Below are positions 25,664 to 35,104 of a DNA stretch of 64,000 nucleotides, one piece after another; position 1 is the stretch's first letter; each line of letters starts with the position of its first letter. The notes below the pieces were generated by a model. The model saw only the letters and a list, made by a program, of their open reading frames with translations, made no database searches and was not told the origin of the DNA. Source of the DNA: a virus (lineage: Duplodnaviria; Caudoviricetes); IMG/VR virus record IMGVR_UViG_3300029288_000065, positions 96,001 through 160,000 of that record; one strand, given 5' to 3'. The translations under genes and the position numbers were made by a program.

Positions 25664-26040
25664 ACATAGACCTAAACAACCCAAACTGTGACATAGAAAA
25701 ACTCCTAACAGACTTCACAGCCTACATCATCATAAACTTCCAGTATAAAGACCCATCCACAGGAGGAGCACAATTCAGCGCAAGAATGGTCGGATCATGG
25801 ATAAGAACCAGAACAGATGGACACTTCCATTTCTCCGACATGGGACTATACGGAGACATAGACCCAAGATTTAAAGAAGATGCCATGCGCTTAATAAAAG
25901 CCTGGGAAGCAGTAAACCTTGTAGATGACACAGGAGAAATGACAAATGGATACCGCGTATTCTGTATACCATATAGTTTAGTAATAAAAACAAAATTAGC
26001 AATGGAAAAAGCAATCAAAGAACAGATAAAGCCTGACTAA
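25660..26040 (+). CDS. hypothetical protein, DP-x-x-D-x-EKL family
   Basis: MNIDLNNPNCDIEKLL...LIKAWEAVNLV. Confidence 0.65.
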   Translation: MNIDLNNPNCDIEKLLTDFTAYIIINFQYKDPSTGGAQFSARMVGSWIRTRTDGHFHFSDMGLYGDIDPRFKEDAMRLIKAWEAVNLVDDTGEMTNGYRVFCIPYSLVIKTKLAMEKAIKEQIKPD

Positions 26041-26626
26041 TCTCCTCATCAGTAAAAATCTTCTTCTTAGACCAACCATGCAAAAACTTAGACGAAGGAT
26101 TCAAAGAATTCCAATTATAAGCCTTATTATCAACCTCCAACCTCCCACCACCCCACTGAGCAAGAGACCTAGTCAAAGCCGGCTGATCACGCCCACCAAC
26201 AACCAACCACTCACTATGCCAAAGTCCAAATAAATCCCTAACTTTATCTGTAGAAAAAAGTAAAAAACCACTATTATATTGAGGTTTCCCACCAGAAGTT
26301 GGATGCACATCCCTCGTTAAAACCAAATCACCAGAAAAATCCCAAACCTCATCAAAGAGACCAACACACTTAACATCAGAATCCAAAAATAAAGTTCTCT
26401 CATATGGAGTATAATCACACAATTGAGTCTTTAACCACCTTGAAGGATTCTTATCCGTTACTTTTACCTGTTGTATTGTTGCTAGGGTATTCAAATACCC
26501 AGTATCACTCAAATCAGTTAGAACAGTAATTGGTTTGTTGGTAAATTCCCGCAATGAAAGTATACTACATGTACAGTTTATTAAGGCCTCTTCTCCGATT
26601 GCAATTTCAACTATTCCTTGTGTCAT
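26015..26626 (-). CDS. GT8/nucleotide-diphospho-sugar transferase-like
   Basis: TPYERTLFLDSD, YNSG, RDQPAL. Confidence 0.75.
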   Translation of the reverse strand: MTQGIVEIAIGEEALINCTCSILSLREFTNKPITVLTDLSDTGYLNTLATIQQVKVTDKNPSRWLKTQLCDYTPYERTLFLDSDVKCVGLFDEVWDFSGDLVLTRDVHPTSGGKPQYNSGFLLFSTDKVRDLFGLWHSEWLVVGGRDQPALTRSLAQWGGGRLEVDNKAYNWNSLNPSSKFLHGWSKKKIFTDEEISQALSVL

Positions 26627-26636
26627 ATTTTATTTT

Positions 26637-26808
26637 TGGTGCTCCTGGAAGGGTTCGAACCTCCAACCTTCCAATGGGATGAAACCCACCATCTAGTGCT
26701 ACGGATCAGACCCATCACACGAGTCGTCCCTTTAGATGACAGGTCATCACCCACTGGTGCTCCACCGACCCCACTACTGCGATAGTGGAGATTTTGAGCT
26801 ACAGGAGC
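26637..26808 (-). ncRNA. 172-nt tRNA-like RNA with D-loop hairpin insertion and extended anticodon arm
   Basis: acceptor GCTCCTG/CAGGAGC + A-CCA, TAGCTC/GAGC D stem, GGAGG-TTCGAAC-CCTTC T arm, long internal helices. Confidence 0.8.
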
Positions 26809-26816
26809 AACTCTTT

Positions 26817-27242
26817 TTACTCATCATCGTATACAAGTCTCGGAGGCTTATTCTCCTTGAAATAAGCCCTAACATGTTCCTTTACAACTTCATTAAAACC
26901 ATACTTATTCATAATCTCCTCCAAATTCTCAGACGGCTCATCGCCACCCAAATATGCCTTTTCACCAACACAAATCAAAATATTATCAGCAAACACCTTA
27001 TGATTCCCTCTCACCACGTATGGGGTGGCGTAGAGAGGAGAATCATTACAACACCCACAAGAATGCCTCATTGAGACACCCTCAGCAATCGCGTAAACCT
27101 TCTTACTGGTGAAGTATTGCTTTCTCCACCTGTCAGTTTTTACCTCCATATCTGGAAATTCAATCATCAAGTTCTCGATCTCTGCTACTTCAAGTGCCTT
27201 GCTCTTCAGTTCTGCAAGGTGTTTGTCGATGGACTCTGACAT
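26817..27242 (-). CDS. hypothetical protein (HSCGCC motif)
   Basis: SD AAGGAG; 141 aa. Confidence 0.7.
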   Translation of the reverse strand: MSESIDKHLAELKSKALEVAEIENLMIEFPDMEVKTDRWRKQYFTSKKVYAIAEGVSMRHSCGCCNDSPLYATPYVVRGNHKVFADNILICVGEKAYLGGDEPSENLEEIMNKYGFNEVVKEHVRAYFKENKPPRLVYDDE

Positions 27243-27252
27243 GTGTCTCTCC

Positions 27253-27558
27253 TTAGAGAAGCTTTAGTTCTCGGAACCAACCACTATCAACTGACGGGGA
27301 AATTGCCAATGCTGTGTGTGCGTTAATGTCTGGTTCATGGAAAATTGCGTGCTTAATTTCCTTGAACTTTTTCTCCCACGAGAGTAAGTCTTCCTCATCC
27401 TTGACGCCCAGGAGGACCATCGTCTTGTGGTTATTGTTCCAATCCTGTACCTATGGATCAGTTAGGTACCTGGAGAGGAACTCCGCTACAGCATGGCAAG
27501 CCTGTACTGCACGCTGAGAGGGCGAAAGATCCTTACGCACTAGCACATACAACTTCAT
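27253..27558 (-). CDS. pth2: peptidyl-tRNA hydrolase 2-like protein with in-frame amber at codon 36
   Basis: MKLYVLVRKDLSPSQRAVQACHAVAEF..P*VQDW..KTMVLLGVKDEEDL..FHEPD..TALAISP..LKLL; SD AGGAG; absent from the ORF track. Confidence 0.85.
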
Positions 27559-27919
27559 CTCGGAGTCTCCTTTCTTCCTGTATTTCCTTGCCCAGTTCCA
27601 ACCACTTTCTCTCGTATTTCTCGTCTCTGAGTTTCTCCATCAGACCAAATAAACTTCTGTTTGCGTAGGCTATGAGGTATGGGTATTTGTCTGAAATGTG
27701 ACAGGCTCGTTTGTCGTTCTCATTGCGATGGATGTGTAGTGCAATTAACCATTTGGAAGCTTCACGTTTATATCCTACGTAGGTTTTCCAGTTTTTTGAT
27801 TTTGGGTTGATGTGTTCGCCGATTTTGGTTCTAGAGTCTTGTTTTAAATCGGTGATTGCTTTGGCGTTTTTCCGGATGTAGTGCTTAATTACTTCTTCGA
27901 CCGTCAAATTCGTCGTCAT
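27533..27919 (-). CDS. basic hypothetical protein, first gene after the leader hairpin
   Basis: SD AAGGAG 7 nt before ATG 27919. Confidence 0.7.
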   Translation of the reverse strand: MTTNLTVEEVIKHYIRKNAKAITDLKQDSRTKIGEHINPKSKNWKTYVGYKREASKWLIALHIHRNENDKRACHISDKYPYLIAYANRSLFGLMEKLRDEKYERKWLELGKEIQEERRLRDEVVCASA

Positions 27920-27926
27920 CTTAAGT

Positions 27927-27975
27927 CTCCTTAACGGGTTTTGACCGAGGGGGTTGGCCATTACCCGTTAAGGAG
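27927..27975 (-). promoter_or_regulatory. SD-sequestering hairpin (13-bp perfect stem)
   Basis: CTCCTTAACGGGT ... ACCCGTTAAGGAG; the 3' arm contains the AAGGAG SD of ATG 27919. Confidence 0.85.
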
Positions 27976-28006
27976 GGTGAAGATCGATGTTTGGTACCTA
28001 ACGCAT
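27968..28006 (-). promoter_or_regulatory. leader uORF M-R-(TAG)-V-P-N-I-D-L-H-P-P-TAA
   Basis: own SD AGGAG; amber at codon 3; last codons overlap the 5' arm of the hairpin. Confidence 0.75.
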
Positions 28007-28047
28007 AACTGTCTCCTAATCTATTTTTATCTACGATTGTCAGTTTG

Positions 28048-28443
28048 TCAATAATCAACGCCTCTCATTTTCAATGTACCAAAATATTTCTCCATCCTCA
28101 AAAATTTCTTCTTTCTATCACTACAAAGGAAGATTAGGCAATCTACAAAGTGTTTCCAGAACGTGTCAGGGTCGAAATTCGGGTCTGCTAGTTCTATTTC
28201 ATAGAACACATAGCTTGGGTAATTTACATTATATTCTTTACTATAAAATATTTTTATGTCGGTATCTGAGATTTCTATAGAAGTTGCTCCGAGGATTCCA
28301 GTATCATAGTCCAGGCAACGTGGTGATTCACTTTTTATTGCAACCCGTCTAAGATCTTGCCCTAAGATTGAATATATTTCTTTCCCTAAGCGCTGGATTG
28401 ATTTTTCTATGGTATGCATGATTTCCAAATGATCTTCGTTCAT
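28048..28443 (-). CDS. small protein, ELADP family
   Basis: IELADPNFDPD. Confidence 0.65.
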   Translation of the reverse strand: MNEDHLEIMHTIEKSIQRLGKEIYSILGQDLRRVAIKSESPRCLDYDTGILGATSIEISDTDIKIFYSKEYNVNYPSYVFYEIELADPNFDPDTFWKHFVDCLIFLCSDRKKKFLRMEKYFGTLKMRGVDY

Positions 28444-28859
28444 TTTCGTTCCCCGAAATCTTTAAAATTATCCAGTACGTTACAGGCTTTGCTTCTTAAT
28501 TTTTTATGGTGTTCGATGCATTTTAGTGACGCATTTGTTATTCGTTCGCACTCGCTCGTGACATATTGTTTTATACTTTCAGCTGCTTCGTGAAAACAAT
28601 TGGGGTTTGCCATTTCGAATGTTAAATATTGTGTTTCACCATCAGAGCTGGTATTCAGATTGAAAACTAATAATAAATCACCTTCCACACTAATGGTTAT
28701 TTTTATAATAATTTTTGCAATATCATAATAATTATCCTTTAAACAGATTATTATTTCTTCGTAGGAATAATTTTTCTTGATTTCGAAAATGTCTGGGAGT
28801 CGTTTTTGTATTTCTGCCCAGATTTCGTTTATTATGGGGATTAGGGGGGTGTTATGCAT
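28440..28859 (-). CDS. small protein, EMANP family
   Basis: FEMANPNCF; ATG directly after the tRNA CCA. Confidence 0.6.
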   Translation of the reverse strand: MHNTPLIPIINEIWAEIQKRLPDIFEIKKNYSYEEIIICLKDNYYDIAKIIIKITISVEGDLLLVFNLNTSSDGETQYLTFEMANPNCFHEAAESIKQYVTSECERITNASLKCIEHHKKLRSKACNVLDNFKDFGERK

Positions 28860-28862
28860 ATT

Positions 28863-28938
28863 TGGCGCTTCCGGAGGGAATCGAACCCCCAACACACTGA
28901 TTTAGATTCAGCTGCTCTACCAATTGAGCTACGGAAGC
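28863..28938 (-). tRNA. amber suppressor tRNA (anticodon CUA)
   Basis: 76-nt cloverleaf GCTTCCG..TAGCTCAATTGGTAGAGC..GCTGA-ATCTAAA-TCAGT..GGGGGTTCGATTCCCTC..CGGAAGC-G-CCA. Confidence 0.92.
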
Positions 28939-29459: not shown

Positions 29460-29670
29460 ATCACTCCAGAGTAACAATATAGCTCTAAGTCTAAACCGAG
29501 AGCAAGCCACTATGCTCCTAAAAGGATTGGAAAGCCTTTCCGAAGACCAAAAGAAGACCGTAGTGTTTGCCAAGATGAAACGAGATCTCGAAAGTATTGT
29601 TGTAATCTGGGATAGACGAATTAAGAATACAAAACTTATTGAAGCTGAAAATGCTAAAAACACTAAATAG
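29413..29670 (+). CDS. hypothetical protein
   Basis: SD GAGG; 85 aa. Confidence 0.55.
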   Translation: MPSPKPIQRTVLKLPESLQSNNIALSLNREQATMLLKGLESLSEDQKKTVVFAKMKRDLESIVVIWDRRIKNTKLIEAENAKNTK

Positions 29671-30343
29671 GATTCTTACATCCTAATCCACAATTGGTAC
29701 ACTTCTGATCTAGTGTTAGAGTGAAATCATGTACAGTATAATTTAAGCCCCAAGATTTGGCTTGAATAGCATAATCTAATGGAGTTGAGATCATTTTCCA
29801 CATAACTGGTTTCCGCCCGAGAAGAATCCATTCTCTAAATTCTGAATCTTTGAATCCGTCAGAAACCATTTTTTCAAATGTCCCCCATGGTTTCCTACTT
29901 TCCAGAACTTGTTGATAACGGTTTATTGATGGCATCCAAGATGATACAACCATCGCATAATAGATAGTCGAAATTTTCCAATCTCTAATCCTCCACCACG
30001 CCCCATAAATCTTGGCAGATCCTAAGAGATTTTCCAAGTCCAAAGTCCAATCAAATTTGGGGATAAATCTACGAGACCACTTCACAAGAATTTCATGATG
30101 TTGACTTGAACACCAATGTAGACCTGCCAGCATTGATGCCACATCACCAACCTGGTGTCCAAATCTTATTGGTGACCCACGGTATGTGGCTCCATACTTG
30201 TAAGCCAAATTCCGAACTGAATCAAAATTCCCATCGTCGTGGACCAATATAGGAATTTTTGGGAAAAACCGTTTCGCAGATTCCAAGAAAAGATGAGTAT
30301 AAGCTGGAGATCCAAAGGTTGAATATACCGTCCCAAAACGCAT
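29663..30343 (-). CDS. GT2-like glycosyltransferase
   Basis: PILVHDDG, GHQVGD. Confidence 0.55.
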   Translation of the reverse strand: MRFGTVYSTFGSPAYTHLFLESAKRFFPKIPILVHDDGNFDSVRNLAYKYGATYRGSPIRFGHQVGDVASMLAGLHWCSSQHHEILVKWSRRFIPKFDWTLDLENLLGSAKIYGAWWRIRDWKISTIYYAMVVSSWMPSINRYQQVLESRKPWGTFEKMVSDGFKDSEFREWILLGRKPVMWKMISTPLDYAIQAKSWGLNYTVHDFTLTLDQKCTNCGLGCKNPI

Positions 30344-30400
30344 TTCCACATCCTTTATCAATATATTTGATTATAAATATAAAAAAGAGGTTTATCTTTG

Positions 30401-31219
30401 ATGTTAAAATCAATTAAAACTTGTATTCCGAGATTAAGAAAACGACCAGAAGTTAAACTCAATATCTTAGAAAAAAGAAACCCAATAATATATGTATATA
30501 CTATTGCTTATAATGAAGAGGTAATGATACCATTTTGGTTAAGACATTATTCAAAATTTGCAACTAAATTGATAATTTATGATAATTTTTCAACAGATTC
30601 AACGAGACAAATAATTACATCATTTCCTAACACTGAGATTAAACAATTCGATACCAAAAACACACTTGATGAAAATAATTTACTTAAAATTAAAAATGAA
30701 TGTTATAAAGAAGCGAGAGGATATGCCGATTTGGTCATCGTCTGTGATGTTGACGAAATTCTCTACCATCAGGATATAATTGGTTTTTTAAAATATTGTT
30801 TGGAACAAAAAATTACATTCCCACGGGTTCTGGGGTTTCAGATGGTTGGGAAACAAGTTCCAACATTTGGACAGATTTATGACCACATAAAAACAGGTGT
30901 CGAATTTGAACGTGAATCGAAACATATCATTTTTGATCCGTTGTTAGATATTAATTTTACAACTGGTGCGCACGAGTGTAATCCTATTGGGGCAATCAAG
31001 TCATCTGAAGATTCTTTTTTATTATTACATTATAAATTCTTATCTCTAGATTTCGTAATTAAACGATATAATCTACTATGTAGTAGATTATCTGAAAATA
31101 ATAAAACGAGAAAATGGGGATGGGAATATCAAGTTACAAATAATCAAATTAAGAATTGGTATTTTGATTTATTGAAGAAATCCAAAAATATTTTAGAAAG
31201 AGAATGGAAGAGATATTGA
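30401..31219 (+). CDS. GT2 (Glyco_tranf_2_4-like) glycosyltransferase
   Basis: AYNEE..PFWLRHY, YDNFSTDST, VCDVDE, GAH, LLHYK. Confidence 0.85.
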   Translation: MLKSIKTCIPRLRKRPEVKLNILEKRNPIIYVYTIAYNEEVMIPFWLRHYSKFATKLIIYDNFSTDSTRQIITSFPNTEIKQFDTKNTLDENNLLKIKNECYKEARGYADLVIVCDVDEILYHQDIIGFLKYCLEQKITFPRVLGFQMVGKQVPTFGQIYDHIKTGVEFERESKHIIFDPLLDINFTTGAHECNPIGAIKSSEDSFLLLHYKFLSLDFVIKRYNLLCSRLSENNKTRKWGWEYQVTNNQIKNWYFDLLKKSKNILEREWKRY

Positions 31220-31232
31220 TCAAAGATCATAT

Positions 31233-31991
31233 ATGTTAAAGTCAGTATTCCAAAAACCTGGATTTCCACCTCTGAGAAAAATTATCCCAAATCAAGAAAC
31301 AAACAAAATTAGATATAACAAAAATTTTGAAATAGATATAGTTGAATTTTGTTCATTATCATGTTTAAATTGTAATAGGTCATGTGCATCCCATCAAGCA
31401 CCATCCAATCGATTTATCTCTATTGATGCTATAAAAGATTTTCTTCATCAAGTGAAAATATTTAAATGGGATTTAGAAAATATACATATTGTTGGTGGTG
31501 AACCAACTCTTCATCCACAATTTTTCCAATTATTAGAAATACTACAAAAATCAGGTATCCCAAATTTACAATTAACCTTAATTACAAATGGATATAGTGA
31601 AAAAACCAAACAAATTTTAAATCAAGTTCCAAAATCAATTAAGATTTTAAATTCAAAGAAAACCTCAAATATACAGAAAAATTTCGTATCATTCAATGTT
31701 GCGCCAATTGACCTTGAAGATTTCAAGGGATCCAATTTTTCGCAAGGGTGTCAAATTTCAGCAAAATGTGGATATGGTCTTGGCGTGTCTGGTTTTTACC
31801 CATGTTGTGTAGCGGCTGGAATAGATAGAGTATTCAAGTTTAATCTTCAGCAATCTTCTTTACAAAGTCTAACAACACAATGGTATAATAAAACTTGCTC
31901 TATTCTGTGCCGTTTTTGCGGTCATTTTCATGGGAAATCTCACTTTGATCCAAATTTTAAATCTCAATCATGGGTGAAAGCATATGGATAA
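31233..31991 (+). CDS. radical SAM protein
   Basis: CSLSCLNC, GGEPTLHP, ITNG, C-terminal Cys cluster. Confidence 0.85.
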   Translation: MLKSVFQKPGFPPLRKIIPNQETNKIRYNKNFEIDIVEFCSLSCLNCNRSCASHQAPSNRFISIDAIKDFLHQVKIFKWDLENIHIVGGEPTLHPQFFQLLEILQKSGIPNLQLTLITNGYSEKTKQILNQVPKSIKILNSKKTSNIQKNFVSFNVAPIDLEDFKGSNFSQGCQISAKCGYGLGVSGFYPCCVAAGIDRVFKFNLQQSSLQSLTTQWYNKTCSILCRFCGHFHGKSHFDPNFKSQSWVKAYG

Positions 31992-32808
31992 GTTTCAACA
32001 GAGGATTTCAAAAAAATCAAGAAATTTACAACCTATTTTTATAAATCCAAAACTTACAAAACTTGAACCAAAAAGTATCGTTGAATCAAAAAATCATTTA
32101 TTTTTGAGAAATAATTTATATAATACTAATCCATGTTTAGTTCATTGTCCTAATATAGGAAATTCATTGAACAAATTTCCAAATTTATTATTCCTCCAAG
32201 ATTTTTTGGATCGGCCAGCAGTAAAAATAGACAGTAGTCAATATACTATTATATTTTATAATAACAAGAAAAATTCTATTCTTCAAAAAAGTATGCAAAG
32301 ATGGAATTTTAAAAATATAATACATTTAGGGCAGGATCAGATTTGGGAAAATTTTATGCAAAGAATAAAATTATTAATTCAATCATTTTCAAAAATAAAA
32401 ACTGAATTCTTTTTCTTTCTTGATGCTTTTGATGTTGTAATATGTAATGATTTAACTCAAGCTATAAAATCATTAACATCGAAAAAATGTGATGCATTAT
32501 ATAATGCAGAAACAGCTCAATATCCAATTGACTTTTGTACAAAATCATTTGAAAGATCCATTATTAAAGAAAATCCACAATGTTTTTTAAATGCAGGTGT
32601 ATCAGTTTGGAAGACCAAATTTTTTAAAGAAATTATGTCTGAATTTTTGGAAACCAGTATTGATAATGATCAATGTGTAATAAAGTTATTATATCAAAAA
32701 TATTTTCCACGTATTCAAATTGACTCAAACAGTGAATCTTTCCAAGTTATTTCACCACCAAATTGGGGTATATATATGAGACCTTATTTGGAGATTTTAA
32801 AATGTTAA
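31984..32808 (+). CDS. PLOD/LH3-type glycosyltransferase domain protein
   Basis: FLDAFDVV, YNAE, FLNAG, DNDQ, IDSNSESFQ. Confidence 0.7.
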   Translation: MDKFQQRISKKSRNLQPIFINPKLTKLEPKSIVESKNHLFLRNNLYNTNPCLVHCPNIGNSLNKFPNLLFLQDFLDRPAVKIDSSQYTIIFYNNKKNSILQKSMQRWNFKNIIHLGQDQIWENFMQRIKLLIQSFSKIKTEFFFFLDAFDVVICNDLTQAIKSLTSKKCDALYNAETAQYPIDFCTKSFERSIIKENPQCFLNAGVSVWKTKFFKEIMSEFLETSIDNDQCVIKLLYQKYFPRIQIDSNSESFQVISPPNWGIYMRPYLEILKC

Positions 32809-33593
32809 AATCAATGATAAAACCTGGATTTCCGAAATTACGTCGGCAATTTGTTTCTCCTACTCTTTCGAAAATTCAAAAATCCGGTGCTATTGTTTTA
32901 ACTGCATCTTTTATTGCTAATACGCCTACTCATGATCATAAAATTAAAGATGAATACAATAGAATTAGACAATATATATATTGTTTGCTTTCTTGGCCAA
33001 ATACTAATATACAAGACATAATATTTTGTGAAAACAATATAAAATTCCCATTTGATTTTAACGATTTGATAAGTATCTGCAATTCTAAGGGTACAAAACT
33101 TGAAATTCTTAGATTTGATAGTTCAAAACAAGATAAATATAAAGGATATGGTTTTCTGGAACATAATATTTTAAAATATGTTTTTGAAAATTCAAAATTT
33201 TTATTAAAACATAAAAATTTTTTTAAAGTGACAGGTCGTCTATTTATAGAAAATTTTAATGAAATAAATACAATGAATTTAACCAATAATAATGTATTTT
33301 CAAAATGCTATTTTGACAATCGTTTTTTGGATACAAGATTTTTCAAAATGTCATGTGATTTTTTTAGAGAAAATTTATATAATATACCTGAAGATCGTTT
33401 TGATTTTGCCAAAAATCATATAGAAAGTGTGTATACGCAACACATAAAAGACTTTGATTTTTTCAAAGAGAAACCAATAATTGTTGGTAGAGAAGCTTAT
33501 CATAATATTATTTATGATAAGGATTATTCTCAGGAACTGATCACATTTTCACAAAAATTTATCCCAGAGAGACCAATTAACCAAAAACGCTAA
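32802..33593 (+). CDS. GT-A-like protein (paralog of 24020..24760)
   Basis: LTAS, KGYGFLE, FKVTGRLFIENF, DTRFF. Confidence 0.6.
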   Translation: MLKSMIKPGFPKLRRQFVSPTLSKIQKSGAIVLTASFIANTPTHDHKIKDEYNRIRQYIYCLLSWPNTNIQDIIFCENNIKFPFDFNDLISICNSKGTKLEILRFDSSKQDKYKGYGFLEHNILKYVFENSKFLLKHKNFFKVTGRLFIENFNEINTMNLTNNNVFSKCYFDNRFLDTRFFKMSCDFFRENLYNIPEDRFDFAKNHIESVYTQHIKDFDFFKEKPIIVGREAYHNIIYDKDYSQELITFSQKFIPERPINQKR

Positions 33594-34248
33594 GAACCTT
33601 CGCCAATCTATCACTTAAAGCAGGTCTCACGACATCACGATGTGATCTCTTAGGATGAAAATGCACCACTCTGGCTGGTAATTGCGCGGTCTTAAACCTT
33701 TCCTGAAAACCAGTCACACCAATATTATATGTATTATCCAAGAAAGTAACCCTATCATTCTCGGAAAGAACCTCAAAAAGCGCCCTTTCCTCTCTTGGAT
33801 AATTACATTCCATGATTCTGTTTGTAACTTTCTCAATCAAATCTTTTGCTGAATCCCTAAGGAAGATACTCCCACCAGCCAATCTCTTGGTTGGGTATTT
33901 ACAAAGTGCCATATCTTTAAATTCTGGTTCTTCAAAAAATACATTCTGCCAAGCATCCAAATCGTGTAACCAGATACTGTCATTTATTGGTAAAATTTTT
34001 AAAATCCCAAATAATTTGCTTCCAGTTGGACAAATTTTATTCAATTCATAGACTCTAGATGCTATTCCTTGATATTCATATGGGAAATTTGATATTATTA
34101 TTATATCATCTTTTTCCCATCCTAGTGATAAACTATTTTCTATCTGTAATTCTAGATATTTCTTCATTCGTGCTATAAATCGCATTGAATCTTGGACTTT
34201 GTATATGTCTTCTACTGGTTGGATATTGACGACCATGACGTTTTTCAT
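33577..34248 (-). CDS. GT-A-like glycosyltransferase
   Basis: WLHDLDAW (DxD), GGSIF, YNIG, VVHFHP. Confidence 0.55.
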   Translation of the reverse strand: MKNVMVVNIQPVEDIYKVQDSMRFIARMKKYLELQIENSLSLGWEKDDIIIISNFPYEYQGIASRVYELNKICPTGSKLFGILKILPINDSIWLHDLDAWQNVFFEEPEFKDMALCKYPTKRLAGGSIFLRDSAKDLIEKVTNRIMECNYPREERALFEVLSENDRVTFLDNTYNIGVTGFQERFKTAQLPARVVHFHPKRSHRDVVRPALSDRLAKVLSVFG

Positions 34249-34895
34249 ATATCATACTTTAATTTCAACGTGTCTTCCCAAACTTTTTCTTCTGATTGTT
34301 CCGCATCTATGAATTGAATAGAATGTGGGCGTTCCCAGTTTCTCATTAGGTGGAGTGCGTTGTCCCAGAGTGTAGAAAGTGGGCGAGATATCTCTGTATA
34401 GGCATTACTTACTGCTTCGAAGTAGGTATCCCCTCGGGATTCTATCTTATCCAGGGTTGCTCTTGTTTGGATGCGTTTTTTGGCTATCTCCCATTTACAG
34501 AGATATATTATTAGTAGGTCAATTCGTGGTGTTTCAATCATCTTTTGAAGTTCAAGAAATCGTGAATCTAATTTTCCTGCTGCATATCCGTAGGCCAATC
34601 CTCCTATTAGATTGGATCTGTCACAAATTACTATTTTTCCTTCTTCTAGGGCTGGTTTGTGGATTTGGTTTGTGAAGCTAGTTAGGTCTGCCAGCATTAA
34701 TATTTGTTCTGTATATCTGTCTATTGTTACTTCTGGATCGTGTTTTACCAGGTGTCTTATTTTTTGTCCTAAGATGGTTGCTCCTGGATGTTTGGTATGG
34801 ATTGCTGTGTCACCCAGGTGGTTTTTGAGCCTGAGGCTCATGGTTGATTTGCCGCTTCCATCTATTCCTTCGAAGACTATGGTTTTCCCTGTCAT
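34245..34895 (-). CDS. tmk: thymidylate (dTMP) kinase
   Basis: IVFEGIDGSGKST, KHPG, VICDR, AYG. Confidence 0.93.
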   Translation of the reverse strand: MTGKTIVFEGIDGSGKSTMSLRLKNHLGDTAIHTKHPGATILGQKIRHLVKHDPEVTIDRYTEQILMLADLTSFTNQIHKPALEEGKIVICDRSNLIGGLAYGYAAGKLDSRFLELQKMIETPRIDLLIIYLCKWEIAKKRIQTRATLDKIESRGDTYFEAVSNAYTEISRPLSTLWDNALHLMRNWERPHSIQFIDAEQSEEKVWEDTLKLKYDI

Positions 34896-35104
34896 GTTTG
34901 TTTGTATCCTTTTTGTTTGTATCCTTTTATTTCACTACCGTCTTTCATATGGATTAGGACAAAATGTGGTATTCCTAGTGATGATGGGCAATATCCAGAA
35001 TTTTTTCTGGCCCAAGAGATTTCTTCGGGGTTTACCAGAACTCTTTGATATGATGCGTCTGGTCCTGGTACTTTATTGTCGATTGGGCCTATTTCAATTA
35101 GCAT
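34892..35104 (-). CDS. hypothetical protein
   Basis: 70 aa, ATGA-coupled to tmk. Confidence 0.5.
   Translation of the reverse strand: MLIEIGPIDNKVPGPDASYQRVLVNPEEISWARKNSGYCPSSLGIPHFVLIHMKDGSEIKGYKQKGYKQT

Follow-up and report, generated by a model that had tools for sequence, protein, structure and literature searches.

Organisation of the amber-gated locus

The subject of this analysis is a compact minus-strand operon at positions 26,637 to 28,938 of a 64,000-nucleotide stretch of phage DNA (referred to below as the window; positions 96,001 to 160,000 of the Caudoviricetes record IMGVR_UViG_3300029288_000065). The phage record that encloses the window is linear, comprises 233,959 bases and is 89% complete. 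An earlier note, made from the letters of the sequence alone, had described five elements within 2.3 kb of this strand, namely a CUA tRNA, a leader with an early amber (TAG) codon, a hairpin occluding a Shine-Dalgarno (SD) sequence, a Pth2-like gene with an internal amber, and a tRNA-like RNA; each of them is indeed present. Read along the minus strand, the features follow one another in this order:

28863..28938, minus strand: CUA tRNA of type I, an amber suppressor (Rfam tRNA, 67 bits)
28048-28862: two unrelated genes between the tRNA and the leader, shared only by locus L001 and outside the module
28023..28051, minus strand: sigma-70-like promoter candidate of the leader operon (TTGACA, 17-nt spacer, 10 of 12 matches; weak)
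27968..28006, minus strand: amber-gated leader with SD; TAG at codon 3 (28000-27998), MR*VPNIDLHPP* (asterisks denote stops), TAA end
27927..27975, minus strand: 13-bp hairpin in which the leader end pairs with AAGGAG, the SD of OrfX
27533..27919, minus strand: OrfX, 128 amino acids, basic and helical; its stop codon and the start of the Pth2-like gene overlap
27253..27558, minus strand: Pth2-fold gene, 101 amino acids; codon 36 (27453-27451) is an in-frame TAG and falls in a variable stretch where helix 2 begins
26817..27242, minus strand: OrfY, 141 amino acids, with a Cys-rich motif; an accessory gene of the close clade
26637..26808, minus strand: tRNA-shaped RNA, 172 nt, z -3.9; accessory

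The comparisons below draw on 137 loci with differing Pth2-like genes (labelled L001 etc.) that were collected through searches of viral and metagenome contigs. Only 10 of 185,579 prokaryote genomes contain such a locus, and every one of these is metagenome-assembled; the operon is therefore a phage module. A literature search, from whose coverage subscription journals were excluded, found no paper describing it. The promoter candidate is the top site of the region and has a similar -35 box in L001 and L004, but the number of such sites is at chance level.

A gated leader that ends on Pro-Pro, in a hairpin that hides the next ribosome-binding site

The hairpin that follows the leader folds with a z-score of -3.3 (0 of 200 shuffles). 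Its 5' arm consists of the final codons of the leader, Pro-Pro-TAA, and its 3' arm contains the SD of OrfX, so that an upstream frame overlaps an SD-hiding hairpin in the manner of an attenuator. Among 12 close loci the pairing is kept amid changes of the letters (at stem positions 5-13, 92 of 108 cells form pairs), and each of the stem positions 9-13 is occupied by three or four types of base pair. Contrary to the outcome that the earlier note had named as damaging to its proposal, relatives keep the two TAGs and the hairpin along with the genes.

The earlier note had overlooked that the end of the leader is itself conserved. An SD-ATG leader with a TAG in codons 2-7 and a Pro-Pro-stop end was found in 39 of 116 loci, compared with 0 of 98, 1 of 89 and 0 of 103 in the controls; when RGPP, RAPP, RSPP and GP-stop variants are included, the leaders number 63, of which 12 carry two ambers and 3 carry three. 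These leaders are 8-18 codons long. The Pro-Pro dipeptide is strongly biased towards the reading frame of the leader (63:8:3, in-frame first), is encoded by 12 different codon pairs, and in 33 of 40 cases follows H, K or R. Since several loci have their anti-SD downstream of the two Pro codons, the comparison argues that Pro-Pro is not merely a by-product of the anti-SD.

Termination after Pro-Pro is slow, and the Pro-Pro end is likely to act as a stall that opens the hairpin. The frame bias points to selection on the peptide motif, and folding with a masked ribosome footprint indicates that the motif is placed such that a paused ribosome would free the SD: the median predicted SD accessibility of 51 folded loci is 0.04 for the free RNA, 0.02 when a ribosome sits at the amber, and 0.51 when it sits at Pro-Pro, a calculation that is partly trivial in that the last position masks a longer stretch. 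RxPP and R/HxPP have been described as strong stalling motifs (PMC10951233). The leader of the window, which ends in L-H-P-P-stop, lacks the R-x-P-P of RAPP-type arrest peptides, which many of its relatives possess as RxPP or RGPP.

The gate itself is mobile. Among close leaders the amber shifts without being lost, from codon 3 in L004 to codon 7 in L198, with both in L200. A purine after TAG is a context that favours suppression, and a purine follows the gate TAG in 53 of 56 and 60 of 63 cases (about 95%) compared with 31 of 49 (63%) of the terminal TAGs of the genome (p about 6e-5 and 2e-5). Both ambers of the window share the sequence TAG-GTA-C, as had been claimed. As a special, conserved signal this motif was rejected, for the codon that follows the gate varies in the relatives (GTT 12, GTA 7, GTC 7, GTG 5), and only TAG-purine, mostly TAG-GTN with Val as the next residue, is kept.

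The internal amber of the Pth2-like gene

The nearest database proteins of the Pth2-like gene product are C-terminal halves of 55-57 residues, and the contigs that encode them all read Asp-Pro-TAG-Val, with changes at nearby synonymous sites. Since independent assemblies (L001-L004, L006, L007, L197-L200) share the same in-frame TAG amid altered neighbouring codons, the sequence record speaks against a sequencing error. Overall, 54 of the 137 Pth2-like genes contain an in-frame TAG. The clade of the window comprises about 27 loci, whose proteins diverge down to about 50% identity and whose TAG occupies the codon-36 column; the remaining internal ambers are found at codons 3-7 or 43-66, which makes at least three non-homologous places that, on alignment, cannot share a single origin. 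At least seven amber changes are counted on a FastTree tree, which is weak. The amber columns are poorly conserved (0.10, compared with a core median of 0.44), and the residue inserted at the gate would hence hardly matter; the few single ambers at conserved columns could stem from errors or mark dead genes. In the window, the amber of the Pth2-like gene lies within the 3' arm of a 7-bp inverted repeat (27445-27474, minus strand), a repeat that the relatives do not have.

A suppressor tRNA whose anticodon matches the gate codon

Of the 76 loci that have at least 2.5 kb on both sides, 66 contain a CUA tRNA, while the next commonest anticodon is found in 9 of 137 loci. In the relatives, the gene often begins 1-50 bases past the stop of the Pth2-like gene, and in the 247-kb genome of L006 it is the sole tRNA match. 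A comparison of 103 of these tRNAs reveals a shared anticodon loop, with differing acceptor stems and discriminator bases. In L039, L098, L099, L120 and L123, the CUA tRNA carries C instead of U at position 33. The tRNA lies on the opposite strand in some doubly gated loci (L006:5795-5868, L007:2543-2616, L022), so that co-transcription is not required. The tRNA of the window had been labelled as a pyrrolysine tRNA by ARAGORN, an assignment that we reject. Pyrrolysine tRNAs possess a 6-bp anticodon stem and a 3-nt variable loop and lack GG and TTC; the phage tRNA has the canonical 5-bp anticodon stem, and both GG and TTC are present. No match to pylS was found in the 89% complete phage genome.

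The strongest test tying the tRNA to the module is, from the loci compared, the co-variation of anticodon and gate codon. In 90 loci with a CUA tRNA, the gate is TAG in 53, TGA in none and TAA in one. Where the adjacent tRNA carries UCA, the gate is TGA: L144 has a TGA-gated leader with an RGSP-TGA end, and L153 has an in-frame TGA near the start of its Pth2-like gene. Where the adjacent tRNA carries UUA, as in Lak B1, Lak C1 and L194, the leaders are gated by TAA and end in RGP, RGSP or RGPP. TAG is a sense codon in Lak phages (PMC6784885), and the gate of their module has thus moved to a codon that remains a stop. The earlier note had left the input of the switch as either the phage's own suppressor or the loss of release factor 1 (RF1) activity; because the gate codon changes together with the anticodon to TGA or TAA, the module's own tRNA is a better reading than the loss of RF1 alone.

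Amber as an ordinary stop elsewhere in the genome

The genome uses the standard code, as the earlier note had maintained: TAG is the stop of 46 among 266 long frames and of 49 among 248 codon-scored predicted genes. Phages with genetic code 15 read TAG as sense in many of their genes and avoid it at gene ends, which is not the pattern here, where one interrupted gene was found. When the genome was scanned for SD-ATG frames in which coding-like sequence continues past an early TAG, only the Pth2-like gene and one doubtful case emerged; a scan of the 234-kb genome for short amber leaders with a Pro end yielded the operon leader alone. Within the limits of detection, the amber-dependent gene set of this phage is hence the operon alone. 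Other TAG-ended genes with long in-frame tails were considered and rejected; in these, the stop overlaps an SD before a new ATG, an arrangement equally common after TAA. Selection for back-up stops after TAG is not seen in the genome (median extension 18 codons versus 16 and 12). The tRNA genes of the genome form a cluster near the start of the contig, in addition to the two isolated tRNA-like genes at the operon locus.

The gene products

When the amber is read through, the Pth2-like gene product matches the PTH2 family of Pfam with an E-value of 2e-11. Its predicted model (mean predicted local distance difference test, pLDDT, 95.7) has the Pth2 fold, with a Z-score of 14.5 and a root-mean-square deviation of 1.8 over 101 residues aligned to 1wn2, and a TM-score of 0.86. 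Nevertheless, the protein scores far under the NCBIfam cut-off (28 versus 126 bits), and in the sequence alignment the residues that we take to have catalytic roles in Pth2 are replaced: Lys by Gln15 and Asp by Glu75, and the Asp-Ala-Gly-x-Thr loop aligns to a shorter Glu-Pro-Asp. The claim that the second amber completes a peptidyl-tRNA hydrolase thus stands for the fold and fails for the canonical catalytic set. The family has invariant or nearly invariant residues of its own (Q19, H22, F73, E75 and T82 in 135 Pth2-like sequences), and the protein is probably an active enzyme that works on acylated tRNA ends, as judged from these residues and the model.

OrfX is matched by profiles upstream of the Pth2-like gene in 95 of 116 loci, the profiles having been built from the same loci, and it overlaps the next start in nearly all of them; the two genes are translationally coupled. 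It has no sequence match in Pfam, PHROG, NCBIfam or the PDB. The model of a member of the broad family (pLDDT 90) matches only generic helical hairpins (best Z-score 7.7) and two unnamed phage proteins, and comparison with known rescue and release factors likewise yields generic helical-hairpin matches only. The link between the sub-family of the window and the broad family is weak (hhalign E-value 0.0012, probability 19.5%) and rests also on position. It is this helical protein without a named family that would be the first to be freed when the first amber, as proposed earlier, unlocks the operon.

A second sub-clade and cultured phages

A second sub-clade of loci has neither OrfX nor leader; its amber is located at codon 3-5 of the enzyme gene itself, and the enzyme is often accompanied by an amber-gated HD-domain partner. 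This sub-clade includes cultured phages. In XacN1 and RAS14, M-K-TAG opens an HD/Pth2-like fusion whose annotation begins at a later start, the amber of XacN1 being codon 3 of the gene, and Kaldavass has a TAG at codon 4 and another one in its HD gene; all three phages encode a CUA tRNA. In-frame TAGs in HD genes that are joined to the Pth2-like gene or adjoin it were seen at L173:940-1800, L174:940-1800 and L175:1470-2400 (RAS14, XacN1 and Kaldavass), and the annotated starts of these HD genes miss the true 5' ends. Further observations concern an enlarged tRNA-shaped sequence about 150 bases past the CUA tRNA of Kaldavass (L181:13600-13880, minus strand) and a second suppressor-type tRNA of RAS14, with a TTA anticodon, beside the CUA one (L177:18429-18503). 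The authors of the XacN1 study could identify no target for its suppressors (PMC5852040); its HD/Pth2-like gene is, from its sequence, a candidate for the target they sought.

Proposed mechanism, and the readings that compete with it

The sequence comparison, which covers the parts, their conservation, the match of gate codon and anticodon, the tolerance of the gate and the geometry of the hairpin, makes it highly probable that the architecture is that of a translational switch which responds when the suppressor tRNA of the module itself reads through a stop codon. The two-step amber switch put forward in the earlier note gains support in that relatives retain both TAGs, the tRNA, and the hairpin, whose arms show compensatory changes. 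As parts of the model, we infer that a host synthetase charges the tRNA, that the ribosome stalls, and in which direction the switch works. In the OFF state, a release factor would terminate the leader at the early amber, the hairpin would stay shut, and OrfX and the coupled Pth2-like gene would not be translated; any translation that escaped would be cut again at the codon-36 amber. In the ON state, the tRNA would win at the amber, and the ribosome would reach His-Pro-Pro-stop, pause on the 5' arm of the hairpin and free the SD of OrfX; further read-through at the second gate would then complete the Pth2-fold protein. Two gates in series would give a steep and leak-free response.

What the switch is for can be stated with less assurance. 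Since no other target of the tRNA was found and the tRNA has no fixed identity, since any stop codon serves as the gate, and since the product is built like a peptidyl-tRNA hydrolase, we favour, at somewhat less than even odds, an alarm for failing termination with negative feedback. The tRNA would be a sentinel that competes with release factors; weakened termination during infection would lead to more read-through and hence to induction, and the induced Pth2-fold enzyme and OrfX would clear peptidyl- or aminoacyl-tRNA, akin to the autoregulation of release factor 2 (RF2). In its broadest form, which we put forward tentatively and with the odds leaning against it, jumbo phages would widely carry a sentinel suppressor tRNA without fixed amino-acid meaning, whose sole task is to report the balance of decoding and termination. 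It would drive an AND gate of several stops, adaptable to any of the three stop codons, and so induce a new Pth2-fold enzyme and OrfX against host defence or stress directed at termination or tRNA ends.

Several findings weigh against the switch or its proposed use. The tRNA of the window is encoded 0.9 kb upstream of the leader instead of at the usual site after the Pth2-like gene; the discriminator base of the tRNAs (A 39, G 29, T 24, C 8) reveals no shared acceptor identity; the re-keyed cases are few, two opal and three ochre; and no release factor, GlnRS/GluRS-type synthetase or pyrrolysyl synthetase was found in the 89% complete genome. The set of loci includes near-copies and grew from searches that started with the amber-36 clade; its fractions are hence not population frequencies. 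To these points the changed catalytic set of the Pth2-like protein and the partly trivial SD-opening calculation must be added.

The same switch might serve other ends. The tRNA could be an offensive tool for read-through of host genes, for instance those of defence, with the gated genes as a governor or clean-up device that limits suppression and peptidyl-tRNA. No other phage targets were found in the genome, the gate positions accept any residue, and host-directed toxicity of phage suppressors has been proposed (PMC12386605). However, TAG terminates one fifth of the genes of the phage itself, close back-up stops are not enriched behind them, and an efficient ochre suppressor, as in Lak, would strike the commonest stop; we consider this role unlikely, though not far-fetched. 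A positive-feedback circuit seems to us unlikely as well, and rather clearly so. Here, OrfX and the Pth2-fold protein would activate the tRNA, either by blocking the release factor or by moving an amino acid onto an identity-less tRNA, and thereby act as a bistable switch for timing or copy number and as an intermediate on the way to full recoding of a stop codon. Such a circuit would fit tRNAs that keep their anticodon loop without a shared acceptor identity and an enzyme with invariant residues of its own (Q19, H22, E75, T82), and bistability suits serial gates; yet the genome offers no downstream amber-dependent genes that would profit, and the module of the TAG-recoded Lak phages uses TAA and a separate UUA tRNA and is hence not their recoding machinery.

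It is improbable, although worth considering, that the Pth2-like protein, together with the HD partner of the other sub-clade, is an enzyme of tRNA-end repair or of attack on host tRNAs that is harmful when leaky, and that the tRNA is a private key limiting it to full infection. The ambers in HD genes that form a fusion with the Pth2-like gene or neighbour it (XacN1, RAS14, Kaldavass, L074, L155, L164, L068) agree with this, and the arrangement would work like a synthetic leak dampener (PMC7969014); but the HD partner is absent from the phage genome, and the need for up to three ambers and a stall motif would go unexplained. Finally, a CUA tRNA labelled as pyrrolysine-type beside an in-frame TAG might suggest that TAG is recoded throughout the genome, that pyrrolysine is inserted, or that the locus reflects a pseudogene or a sequencing error. 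TAG as a normal terminator, the lack of a PylS match in the 89% complete genome and the canonical shape of the tRNA contradict these notions, as do the retention of the TAG across proteins about 50-65% identical and the flanks of the amber-split loci, which exhibit no loss of long code-11 frames; the locus comparisons refute such readings, as far as sequences can, and we give them almost no credence.

Relation to known systems and significance

The bacterial gene for RF2 (prfB) contains an internal UGA and is autoregulated by +1 frameshifting. As in the phage module, an internal stop makes a translation-related gene depend on a failure of termination; in contrast, the phage uses a dedicated tRNA instead of a frameshift and any of the three stops, and its product is not a release factor. 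In Streptomyces, bldA gates genes through UUA, a rare sense codon, and is thus likewise a tRNA used as a key, albeit for a sense codon instead of a stop. The synthetic suppressor-tRNA leak dampener (PMC7969014) also employs a tRNA as the key to genes containing its codon and reduces leak by serial gates, whereas the phage switch is natural, phage-borne and coupled to a stall-and-hairpin leader. Stalling-leader attenuators (SecM-secA, ermCL and the RAPP-type ApdA/ApdP; PMC10951233) have the short upstream frame, the Pro-Pro motif, the SD-hiding hairpin and the stall position on the 5' arm in common with the phage leader, in which, however, the motif is H-P-P-stop and not RAPP, sits behind a stop codon, and receives as its input the read-through that a co-inherited suppressor tRNA brings about. 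Phages with recoded stop codons (code 15; Lak and crAss-like phages; bioRxiv 10.1101/2021.08.26.457843, PMC6784885) also combine a phage suppressor tRNA with expression conditional on read-through; here, the dependence is limited to a leader and one gene, and TAG remains a stop. The Lak phages retain the TAA/UUA module beside their recoding system. Pth2 hydrolases (PF01981; 1wn2, 2zv3, 1q7s) share the fold and the QxxH motif with the phage protein, which differs from them in falling below the NCBIfam cut-offs and in the replacement of the catalytic Lys and the Asp-Ala-Gly-x-Thr loop.

A study from 2025 asks what 'non-functioning' phage suppressors are for (PMC12386605), and a TTA suppressor listed for Lak phages is left unexplained (PMC6784885 supplement). 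The module supplies concrete targets for suppressor tRNAs in standard-code phages and would explain those that appear useless; such targets would have been missed because the stop lies at codon 3-7 or inside a tiny leader. The question becomes testable in the cultured phages XacN1, RAS14 and Kaldavass. The present locus adds a doubly gated clade, counts of ochre and opal re-keying, targets in cultured phages and an accessory RNA. If the proposal is true, the module is a natural sensor of stop-codon read-through and offers ready parts for read-through reporters. It also suggests why suppressor tRNAs might be present before any recoding has evolved, and it points to an uncharacterised family of Pth2-fold enzymes with invariant residues of its own.

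The tRNA-shaped RNA and other accessory features

OrfY, which has no family match in library searches, follows the Pth2-like gene in L002, L004, L018 and L197-L200 and lies upstream of it in L139. The 172-nt RNA downstream has the shape of a tRNA, with an acceptor stem and CCA, a T arm, a D-loop hairpin and a long rod in place of the anticodon arm; it has no Rfam match up to an E-value of 1. The 7-nt anticodon loop with U33 of a decoding tRNA is lacking, and no anticodon is conserved among the three homologues. A homologous RNA follows OrfY in L197 and L198, and 6 of the 50 pairs of the rod have changed on both sides, a count from three sequences only. L018 and L199 have a differently expanded tRNA shape (z -4.95) at the same place, and L004 and L200 have none; the earlier note had counted the RNA as an element of the operon, which is true of this phage and otherwise restricted to its close clade. 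DNA pattern searches of viral contigs for the amber-36 clade and for the 172-nt RNA returned no additional matches. The RNA occupies the usual site of the suppressor in most distant loci, and our guess is that it might be a derived copy of the suppressor acting as a decoy or substrate.

Outside the window, a tRNA-Leu(UAA) gene of the phage genome is split by a 195-nt insertion that resembles a group I intron (G000:C1:3555-3836), and a tRNA called as Arg(TCT) has C at position 33, an imperfect acceptor stem and a loop near that of the suppressor (G000:C1:128-199). The locus is flanked by glycosyltransferase-like and radical-SAM-like genes (window positions 26015-26626 and 29663-34900); the first of these has a weak Glyco_transf_8 match, and the others were judged by eye.

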